Assembly: GCA_964016885.1 (NCBI GenBank) | Contig: OZ024743.1 | Coordinates: 224,130,001-224,194,000 of the forward strand | Reading direction: 5' to 3' | DNA: 64,000 bases | Source: Eledone cirrhosa | Lineage: Eukaryota | Shown here: positions 24,670-27,642 of the stretch, piece after piece | Layout of the letters: every line of letters starts with the position of its first letter | How positions within the stretch are numbered: position 1 is the stretch's first letter | Translations under genes and position numbers: made by a program | The notes under the pieces: generated by a model | Told to the model about the DNA's origin: nothing | Database searches by the model: none | What the model saw: the letters and a program-made list of their open reading frames with translations, nothing else

Positions 24670-27642
24670 AACAAAATATCGTTATAGGTAATCCAGTTAG
24701 AGGTTGTGAGTACTTCTTATTATGGATAGTTTTAGCGTACAGCTTTGTTTGACTCAACAAGAGGTTTACGTAGATGGCGAGTTTCTGGTTTAACTTGTAT
24801 TCCTATATAAATTTATCTTGGAGTAATAAAATTGAAAAAATGTGAAGAATAACATGCTCAACAGTACAAAAAAGGGGAATTTATTTACAGTCTAACAATT
24901 GTTTCTCTGATTGAGTTGTCTAAAAATTGCTGAACACTAGAAGCAGTGCCACTCAATTTTAGATACGATGCTAGCTCAATCATGTCATCAGAAACTGTTA
25001 TAAAAAATATATAACCGGCAAATCTACAAATTCAGTTTACAGCATCAATAATAATATTAGTAATAAAGATAGAGAGAGAACAAAAGAAAGAAAGAGAGAT
25101 AGATAAAGGAAAGAAAGAAAGAAAAAGGAAAAATCAAAAGAAAAAGGAGAAATGAAAACAGAGAAAGATATAGAGAGAGAAAAAAGATGTAGAGAAAGGA
25201 GGATAGAAAAGGATATAGGAGAAATGGCGTAAGAGAAAAAAAAAGAAAAATAGATGGAAAATAATGATATCAACAATAAATGAATAAATGTTAATACATG
25301 AATAAATGTTAATACATGAATAAATGTAAATAAATAAATAAATAAATAAATGAATAAATAAACAAATTATATCGAGTATGATACAAAATGATACAAAATA
25401 TGAAATATGAAAATATGAAAATATGAAAATATGAAAATAAATAAGTAAAAATGTGCGAAGAAATTTAAACAAAGATTATTGAAAGTGGTTAAAATATAGA
25501 GAGATGTTAAATATATCTTCCCTAAAATTCATTAAGATCATAAAATCTTTGATAGAAAAACTATCAAACTATCATACTCCACTGCCAACAACATAGAATC
25601 ATACATAAAATTAACTATAAAAGAATTTATAATACAAGTAGCCCGCTAATAAGTACCATAACACCAAATACAAAACATAAACATATAACATCATCACAAC
25701 CAAACACACATCAGAACACATCACTACAATACATCAACAAACCCAATTCTCAGCCCTTGCATAACAATTTACAAAACCATATTGAAGAACCGGTACATAG
25801 GAAAGCATCTAAATGTAACTGTCATCTACCTGACAAATACCCATTACAAAATAGATGCCTAGAGTCTAATATAGTATACCTATGTACTATAAATTCAGGC
25901 AGCTTAGCATGGCACTACATAGGATCTACAGCTGGAGAATTTAAGAAAAGGTGGTATGTCCACAGACGCTCTATGAATAACAGGAAGCTCATAAATACAA
26001 CAACTCTCGTCAATAAAATATGGCAACTCAGAGATGCAAACATGGAATATAAAATCAGCTGGACGAAGCTATCAACAACAACGGCCTATCGAATTGGCAT
26101 GTCCCACTGTGGTCTTTGTAATATGAAGCTTTTCCAAATTTTAAAGTACAACAAAATGCTACTTAACAGTAAAATTGAAAGAACTATTTACTGTAGGCAT
26201 AAAACGGCGACCAAATTTGAGAACTTTAGACCAGCTTAATTCATCTTATCTATTCCATAACCCAAATTGTACCACTTAGATCTATTATAATATCACATTA
26301 TCATCATTATTGTTATAATTGTCACCATCTATCAATGAACCAACATCAAAACCGCTTATATTTACATTCATATTTTATGTATCTCTATCTTTCTATCTCT
26401 ATTTCTCTCCCTAAATTTATTTCATCCCTAGTATGTTATCTTATCATATCCTTTTCACTTCTAATATAACATACAACTAATTAATTAAATAATTAATTAA
26501 TTATAAAATAACCAATACACACATAAATATATTTAACATTATCGTATTTATACCTTCCCACCGAGGTTAACTTTGACTTTCATCCTTACGGAGTCGATAA
26601 AATAAAGTACCAGCAATACACTGCGTAATTGCTGGCCTAGTGCCAAAAATAGAAACAATTATCATATTTATACCTTCGCATCTCTCTATATTTTAACCAC
26701 TTTCAATAATCTTTATATGTTTAAATTTCTTCGCACATTTTTACTTATTTATTTTCATATTTTCATATTTCATATTTTGTATCATTTTGTATATAATTTG
26801 TTTATTTATTTATTTATTTACATTTATTCATGTATTAACATTTATTCATGTATTAACATTATTCATTTATTGTTGATATCATTATTTTCCATCTATTTTT
26901 CTTTATTTGTCTCTTACGTCATTTCTCCTATATTCTTTTCTCTCCTCTTTCTATCCTCCTTTCTTTACATCTTTTATATATATATATCTTTCTGTTTTCA
27001 TTTCTCCTTTTTCTTTTTCTTCTCATTTTTCTTTTTCCTTTTTCTCTCTTTCTTTCCTTTATCTATCTCTCTTTCTTTCTTTTGTTCTCTCTATATCTTT
27101 ATTACTAATATTATTATTGATCGGTGAATTGGCAGTATCGGTAGAGCGTCAGACACCATGCTTTACAGCATAGAGTTATGGCCCTTTATGTTCTGAGTTC
27201 AAATCCCGCCGAGGTTAACTTTGCCTTTCATCCTTACGGGGTCGATAAAATAAAGTACCAGTACTGCTCTGGGATAATTGCTGGCCTTGTGCCAAAAGTA
27301 GAAACAATTATTATTGATCCCGCCACGGTTAACTTTGCCTTTCACCCTTACGCGGTCGATAAAATAAAGTACCAGTAATACACTGGGATAATTGCTGGCC
27401 TTCTGCCAAATGTAGAAATAATTATTGTTGATGCTGTAATTTGAATTTGTAGATTTGCCGGTTATATATATTTTATAACAGTTTCTGATTGAGCTAGCAT
27501 CGTATTTAAAATTGAGTGGCACTGCTTCTAGTGTTCAGCAACTTTTAGACAACTCAATCAGAGAAACAATTGTTAGACTGTAAATAAATTCCCCTTTTTT
27601 GTACTGTTGACCATGTTATTCTTCACATTTTTTCAATTTTAT
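24670..27642 (+). mobile_element. 5'-truncated Naiad-type PLE flanked by inverted pLTRs (arms 24835-25506 and 26679-27642)
   Basis: KTIKLSYST then ORF 25757-26239 (CNC..PL..RCL, IVY..YIGST, CGLC, CRH). The ~670-bp inverted arms carry HHRs. SINE A insertions at 26558-26665 and 27123-27425. Confidence 0.9.
24887..24998 (-). ncRNA. Hammerhead ribozyme with extended stem II
   Basis: ACAGTTT-CTGATGA-CA-TGATTGAG...CTCAATCA-GA-GAAA-CAATTG-TT-AGACTGT; palindromic AACAATTGTT. Confidence 0.85.

Follow-up and report, generated by a model that had tools for sequence, protein, structure and literature searches.

A truncated endonuclease frame between inverted hammerhead-bearing arms in Eledone cirrhosa: a very probable dead Hydra-clade PLE copy in a (TA)n microsatellite

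The 64-kb window, which is the whole stretch of DNA analysed here, contains at 24-27 kb a truncated endonuclease (EN) reading frame enclosed by inverted arms (Table 1). The preliminary description gave these arms as about 670 bp long, which agrees with the self-comparison of the window: a left arm of 681 bp (24826-25506, minus strand) pairs with 26679-27642, and the right arm measures 653 bp once a 311-bp SINE block is removed. The frame between them is open at 25556-26239. The arms differ by 3.0% (19 mismatches over 626 aligned bases), which indicates an old, genuine duplication and no read artefact. A 13-nt piece at 25504-25516, identical to 26527-26539 and matched once on each strand of the window, may lengthen the left arm at its inner end. 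The locus is the sole copy of its family in the window.

Both 3' ends face outward into (TA)n, which adjoins the locus on either side, and a tail is found at one end only. The left arm goes on for 162 bp from TACTCC to (TA)5, while the right arm enters (TA)n at 27642, so the earlier observation that the sense arm halts at (TA)n where its partner runs into TACTCC is borne out. The one-sidedness of the tail, previously put at about 165 bp, also holds, but it is 162 bp long and spans 24664-24825 instead of starting at 24670. The tail is present in one copy in the window and is probably derived from the element. In the standard layout of PLEs, an inverted 5'-truncated copy lies beside the 5' end and a tail at one end (PMC8557442); such an inverted copy is present at the 5' end of this locus. 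The window self-comparison found no direct repeat of the arm, that is, no direct pLTR from a partial tandem, which would be unexpected anyway in a copy truncated within its ORF. The TSD is unreadable, the target being (TA)n.

Table 1. Features of the 24-27-kb locus and of the ORF-less palindromes in the window.
Feature	Position	Strand	Remarks
16-bp inverted duplicate of tail terminus	24638-24653	+	forms 42-bp perfect palindrome 24638-24679 around (TA)5
(TA)5, left target remnant	24654-24663		
Tail, 162 bp, inverted copy only	24664-24825	-	begins TACTCC
Inverted 5'-truncated copy of 3' UTR (inverted pLTR)	24826-25516	-	main arm to 25506; possible 13-nt inner piece to 25516
Type I hammerhead motif, left arm	24998-24887	-	core 24991-24985 and 24905; predicted cut after 24894; long stem II
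Hydra-clade PLE ORF remnant, C-terminal (linker + GIY-YIG EN)	25517-26239	+	
3' UTR of sense copy, ~970 bp without SINEs	26240-27642	+	final part is right arm, 26679-27642
5'-truncated SINE piece	26558-26657	+	20-bp TSD 26538-26557, 26658-26677
12-bp repeat, three copies bounding SINE units	27110, 27307, 27421		
Full SINE and second truncated unit, tandem	27122-27306, 27319-27420	+	absent from left arm
Hammerhead remnant, right arm	27478-27581	+	8-bp deletion in CUGAUGA core
(TA)n, ~364 bp, right target remnant	27639-28002		
ORF-less hammerhead palindrome	27995-28350 (with tail to 28431)		central gap 3 bp
ORF-less hammerhead palindrome	39268-39690 (with tail 39133-39690)		central gap 1 bp
ORF-less palindrome truncated within hammerhead	58525-58818 (with tail to 58914)		central gap ~10 bp
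ORF-less hammerhead palindrome	61778-62188 (with tail to 62285)		nested junction palindrome, ~70 extra bases

The coding remnant consists of the open frame and a frameshifted piece near 25517-25619 that carries an in-frame stop. The conserved Glu is read as Lys (26126) and the third linker Cys as Tyr (25838), in a column that is Cys in most relatives. The frameshift, the stop and the Lys at the conserved Glu indicate that the copy is dead. The other EN positions read C (26108/26117), N (26165) and C/H (26192/26198), the linker CxC lies at 25814/25820, and there is no cysteine pair between GIY and YIG (no CCHH). Coding homology within the inverted arm was considered and rejected as a chance AKKF look-alike, the profile match running from 25506 and the real match from about 25517; no microhomology is therefore claimed at the inversion junction.

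The last 144 residues of the frame match 2784 proteins (E<=0.001), and CxC(x5)C is present in 95 of the best 150 of these. EN motifs were scored in 128 of the best 150, with 22 rows dropped in which YIG was not located. Among these 128, CxxCxxE occurs in 124 and CxH in 111, CxxC between GIY and YIG occurs in none, and an RT YxDD lies upstream of the EN in five and downstream in none. A 707-position profile was built from 55 proteins of at least 650 residues, out of 102 homologues of the RT+EN frame found in the window; the remnant maps to its positions 511-704, followed by a stop codon and the 3' UTR. RW[KR] is found in 49/55 and DK[TS] in 55/55 of these full-length relatives, in a region truncated away at the locus together with the RT. 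Among 32 aligned members, 10 had a Pfam GIY-YIG match; the remnant itself gave sub-threshold noise only in Pfam, with no GIY-YIG match. A profile search of PDB returned no matches, and a word-index search for longer homologues yielded none among 44 candidates.

The published marks of the Hydra clade are a C-terminal EN, CxC(x5)C, CxxC and CxH flanking a conserved E and N, RWK and DKT in the N-terminal part, and no CCHH, and the Hydra alignment in the same source has the linker and CRH end seen in the relatives of the locus (PMC8557442). The position of the EN C-terminal to the RT, the Hydra-clade motifs and the downstream hammerhead together assign the element to the Hydra clade and not to the Naiads. 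As regards clade and layout, it is highly probable that the 24-27-kb locus is a dead Hydra-clade PLE copy in a published configuration.

The hammerhead lies in the sense of the ORF in both copies. In the upstream arm, where it had been called intact, the core motifs are indeed whole (CUGAUGA and GAAA), with a 7-bp stem I, an 8-bp stem II carrying a 59-nt insert, a palindromic stem III and a GUU site. However, stem II begins with two mismatches, C-A and A-G, and the ribozyme fold reaches -21.4 kcal/mol if forced, against -25.2 for the stronger free fold (a gap of ~4 kcal/mol). The word "intact" therefore suits the motifs only, and the structure is best regarded as a putative ribozyme. The 8-bp core deletion noted earlier in the sense arm is confirmed and sits between two TGAT copies. 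A strict hammerhead descriptor picked out two window loci, against none in 40 shuffled windows, and misses bulged motifs at 28, 39 and 62 kb; a relaxed one gave nine matches in the window, a number set against no shuffle control. An Rfam search at the gathering threshold found no hammerhead. Elsewhere, a hammerhead-like motif at 51121 (minus strand) satisfies the strict descriptor, with an 11-bp stem I, and two copies of one repeat bear hammerhead-like motifs at 10769 (minus) and 16688 (plus).

The SINE with a TSD that had been placed in one arm does occur in the right copy only, but it consists of two tandem units with 12-bp repeats. A third SINE piece (26558-26657) and the 42-bp palindrome at 24638-24679 had been missed. 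Later decay is the probable source of the SINE insertions, the 8-bp deletion and the changes in the EN, each of which is found in one copy only. Heads of tRNA-derived SINEs are also found at 43210 and 53982. The SINE and the microsatellites are suggestive of a cephalopod.

Several other elements lie in the window. A 5'-truncated Hydra-clade PLE at 2492-5623 (minus strand) has an open RT+EN frame of ~570 aa and a 1.4-kb 3' UTR; its near-complete frame (3917-5623) is related to that of the locus, with 33% identity over the EN. This copy carries a mutated-core hammerhead at 2599 and (TA)n at both ends, without inversion. The 3' end of a second member of its family, with an 83-bp ACTCC tail, is cut by the window edge (63886-64000, minus strand). 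A decayed PLE of another clade lies at 14200-15380 (plus strand), with a cysteine-rich linker, YIGET and a hammerhead-like motif at 15196, and an inverted relative of its 3' end is found at 18459-18655. Several LINE fragments with endonuclease and RT frames occupy 40-62 kb in both orientations, one of them with a 124-bp fold-back (45126-45249). Old inverted repeats without a hammerhead are present at 34056-34254 (78%) and 31724-32590 (85%), the latter presumably a DNA transposon remnant.

From 38 local inverted matches, those with a hammerhead or its 3' half were kept, namely the 24-27-kb locus and four ORF-less palindromes. The matches left aside were LINE/SINE pairs, microsatellites and inverted units in which no hammerhead was seen (34.1, 45.1, 52.6, 62.8 kb and others). 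The arm of the 39-kb palindrome aligns to the locus arm (z=5.6, 0/300 shuffles) and has a long stem II, a GUU site and the end point in common with it; judged by these features, it is a distant relative of the locus family. The 28-kb arm is marginal (z=4.1, 1/300 shuffles), and the 58-kb and 62-kb arms show no significant alignment to the locus arm. Membership of the 28-kb and 62-kb palindromes in the locus family was rejected, with no blastn match and arm z-scores of 4.1 and 0.7. On sequence comparison, the four ORF-less palindromes are at most distant relatives of the locus family and none belongs to it. The evidence supports a tie between them and the PLE locus by architecture, not by family.

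The palindromes also have features of their own. The structure at 39133-39690 is centred on the 5' strand of hammerhead stem I; its stem II forms a hairpin of 115 nt (fold z -5.8), and its 135-bp tail ends in a 6-bp hairpin. The structures at 27995-28431 and 61778-62285 are related palindromes with homologous tails of 85-97 bp. Tail and hammerhead state are uncoupled, the tail at 28 kb being on the arm with the mutated core.

A more regular pattern is seen at the ends. The short end lies 56-77 nt past the hammerhead cut site in 6/6 window ends measured, and exactly one arm carries a tail in all five inverted structures (the 24-27-kb locus and the four ORF-less palindromes). If ends chose freely at even odds, five out of five would have a probability of ~0.03, a figure drawn from a small sample of related families. 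In five of six tails, ACTC begins no more than 5 nt from the arm end; at 58.8 kb it lies 11-13 nt out. By comparison, ACTC fell within 9 nt of a random site in 424/16620 tests. Three loci, of which two are related, had been viewed before the motif was chosen, and it was the motif that led to the 63.9-kb copy; ACTCC is also present within each of the locus arms. Another one-sided unit, at 62.8-63.8 kb, is without ACTC at its tail start. The tail pattern is tied to a coding element most strongly by the 63.9-kb copy. Its sequence and the 3' end of the copy at 2492-5623 have 23 exact bases in common, the latter stopping in (TA)n at the point where the 63.9-kb copy enters ACTCC.

The tails themselves have little in common. 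No significant alignment was found between the 162-bp tail and the five other tails of the window (z -0.9 to 1.4), a conserved structure is unsupported (fold z-scores -2.0 to 0.5), and no conserved reading frame was seen. In the literature covered, which excludes older Penelope-structure papers, no account was found of the one-sided tail rule, Hydra-clade tails, the ACTC mark or tail-end mini-palindromes. The one-sided tail pattern is the only part of the locus that may add something new.

Inverted arms flank three of the 391 TA runs in the window, two of them at tail ends (24638-24679 and 58873-58914). At 58.9 kb, the outer copy of the tail-end duplicate sits between two microsatellites, which favours an origin from the element. 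For Adineta it is noted that 3' self-priming of a sense template would produce tail-to-tail repeats (PMC3846280). Such a tail-end mini-palindrome may also stem from another very small insertion in that TA run, or from copied flank. The unit at 62707-63772 is both tandem and inverted; it has no clear hammerhead, and its tail of ~105 bp is one-sided. Pieces of this tail stand tail-to-tail around TA runs at 52.8 kb, inside an inverted pair (52600-53072).

As a whole, the locus is best explained, with fair confidence, by a single integration of a Hydra-clade PLE into (TA)n, with priming at two ends and head-to-head joining. According to this explanation, the element would integrate once into the microsatellite, leaving a 5'-truncated sense copy (EN remnant and 3' UTR) head-to-head with a shorter inverted copy of the 3' UTR. 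The RT-EN protein would nick both target strands, and cDNA would be primed from each. The first cDNA would start internally, 68 nt after the ribozyme cut and just before ACTCC, and so lack a tail; the second would start 162 nt further downstream and include it. The two cDNAs would stop at different points before being joined, and stops at the same point inside the 3' UTR would give an ORF-less palindrome. The two-strand priming step itself is rated slightly better than even. In vitro work on an Anolis PLE showed nicking and extension of both strands, with two RT start sites at the bounds of the tail (PMC11167929). However, neither strand prefers a start site in that system (PMC11167929), which leaves the strict one-sidedness unexplained by two-strand priming.

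A broader proposal is tentative, with the balance somewhat against it. Hydra-clade PLE integration would be obligately asymmetric, one strand starting at ACTC(C) 56-77 nt past the cut and the other 65-160 nt further on, so that each inverted insertion receives exactly one long tail. Joining could then occur anywhere, with products grading from 1-kb coding spacers into abundant ORF-less hammerhead palindromes with the look of MITEs. Inverted duplicates centred on (TA)n at tail ends (2/6, perhaps 3) would be traces of fold-back priming across the self-complementary target.

The main alternative keeps the same Hydra element and has the inversion arise before integration, by self-priming (fold-back) of one cDNA or antisense template, after which the EN trims one tail. 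This is unlikely. It was proposed for inverted junction palindromes of Adineta Penelope (PMC3846280), Craig et al. 2021 attribute the PLE tail to EN resolution (PMC8557442), and it explains strict one-sidedness at least as well as two-strand priming. The spacers of 1, 3 and ~10 bp in three palindromes also resemble hairpin loops, and the 62-kb locus has a nested junction palindrome. In contrast, the 24-27-kb locus has a 1-kb unique spacer and no junction palindrome, and the tail boundary agrees with RT start sites in the sole in vitro system (PMC11167929). The tail also lies on the short copy here and apparently on the longer copy at 62 kb, where the assignment is weak (z=2.9, 9/500 shuffles).

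It is quite improbable that the locus began as a plain truncated Hydra copy, of which host repair later made an inverted duplicate, with the 162-bp tail as unrelated flank. The copy at 2492-5623 shows that inversion-free insertions occur in the window, and the lack of significant alignment between the 162-bp tail and other tails would fit such an origin. However, the inverted copy carries 162 bp that are missing from the sense copy, which rules out plain copy-back of the integrated sense copy; a genomic copy-back should enter (TA)n past 27642, not TACTCC. Furthermore, the tail runs up to (TA)5 itself, the two arms have the same end point as the related 39-kb palindrome, and ACTC is rarely close to a random site (424/16620).

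Long inverted arms flanked by TA could also suggest a DNA transposon or MITE with long terminal inverted repeats that captured a PLE fragment, or an assembly artefact. This is very improbable, as the arm hammerhead lies in ORF sense at the Hydra position and the arms are unequal at the outer end, while the 3.0% divergence, indels and one-arm SINEs rule out a read fold-back. Finally, the earlier assignment to a Naiad with an N-terminal EN can be set aside as having a negligible chance of being right: a GIY-YIG EN, the CxC motif, (TA)n targets and inverted 5' copies are known there too (PMC8557442), but here the EN is C-terminal, followed by a stop codon and 3' UTR, with RT downstream in 0/128 best matches, no CxxC within the GIY-YIG core, Hydra-clade motifs and a hammerhead.

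Taken alone, the 24-27-kb locus is a dead PLE copy of an ordinary kind. It is useful as a label that connects ORF-less hammerhead palindromes in (TA)n with Hydra-clade PLEs; in automatic annotation such palindromes would probably be classed as MITEs or unknown. The earlier suggestion that the ORF-less palindromes are linked to PLE integration is upheld in so far as they share a design and the 39-kb arm aligns to the locus (z=5.6), with the reservation that none is of the same family. It is also largely in print already, junction palindromes and inverted pLTRs having been attributed to PLE integration (PMC3846280). How the tandem and inverted ends of PLEs are constructed is described as an open question (PMC8557442). 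Long tails and many copies would provide material for a genome-scale contrast of one-strand fold-back with two-strand priming.

Among known systems, non-LTR retrozymes resemble the ORF-less units in lacking an ORF, carrying a type I hammerhead and deriving from PLE pLTRs (10.64898/2026.07.22.740005). However, retrozymes are head-to-tail tandems, whereas the ORF-less units of the window are head-to-head, and palindromes are not mentioned in the available portion of that source. Tandem direct units, each with a hammerhead, are likewise not found at the 24-27-kb locus. Naiads share with it a GIY-YIG EN, inverted copies, a tail and (TA)n, but differ in their N-terminal EN, in the CX2-5CxxC finger and CCHH of that EN, neither of which is seen here, and in their lack of a canonical hammerhead (PMC8557442).

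The Poseidon element PAc of Anolis carolinensis is similar in having a tail between two RT starts, extension of both strands and AT-rich targets (PMC11167929). It differs in that its tail is 30-40 nt long and lies within the ORF start, while the locus tail has no conserved frame; inverted products are untreated in the accessible text (PMC11167929). PLE tails in general are described as element-derived, 30-40 bp long and at one end (PMC8557442). Also similar are Pen2 and Pen2a of Adineta vaga, truncated copies between inverted pLTRs with an optional tail on one of them and junction palindromes, which were read as self-priming (PMC3846280). These belong to the Penelope/Poseidon clade and, unlike the locus, have a 31-bp tail, a pLTR of ~200 bp and a readable TSD of 9-10 bp (PMC3846280).

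The locus also resembles the Hydra-clade PLEs, notably Penelope-13_HM and Hydra-1_Obim, which have a C-terminal EN, the linker and CxxC/CxH motifs, no CCHH, a 3' type I hammerhead and (TA)n (PMC8557442). The locus differs from the 24 listed Hydra motifs, with loops of ~3-9 nt, in the 59-nt insert of its stem II, and from Hydra PLEs further in its 3' UTR of ~970 bp and its 162-bp tail (PMC8557442). Judged by the hammerhead listed for Hydra-1_Obim, the locus probably belongs to a different family (PMC8557442). If positions are counted from the 20-nt flank, Hydra consensus sequences end 30-70 nt past the cut site in 12/24 cases, 88-153 nt in 11/24 and 355 nt in 1/24 (PMC8557442), distances that would fit long optional tails in this clade. 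The published Hydra hammerhead list includes GUU sites, a preference for (TA)n is recorded, and the occurrence of inverted 5' pLTRs in PLEs, as the preliminary description had stated, extends to a Hydra example: like the locus, Penelope-13_HM has an inverted 5'-truncated copy at its 5' end (nt 1-966 there; PMC8557442).
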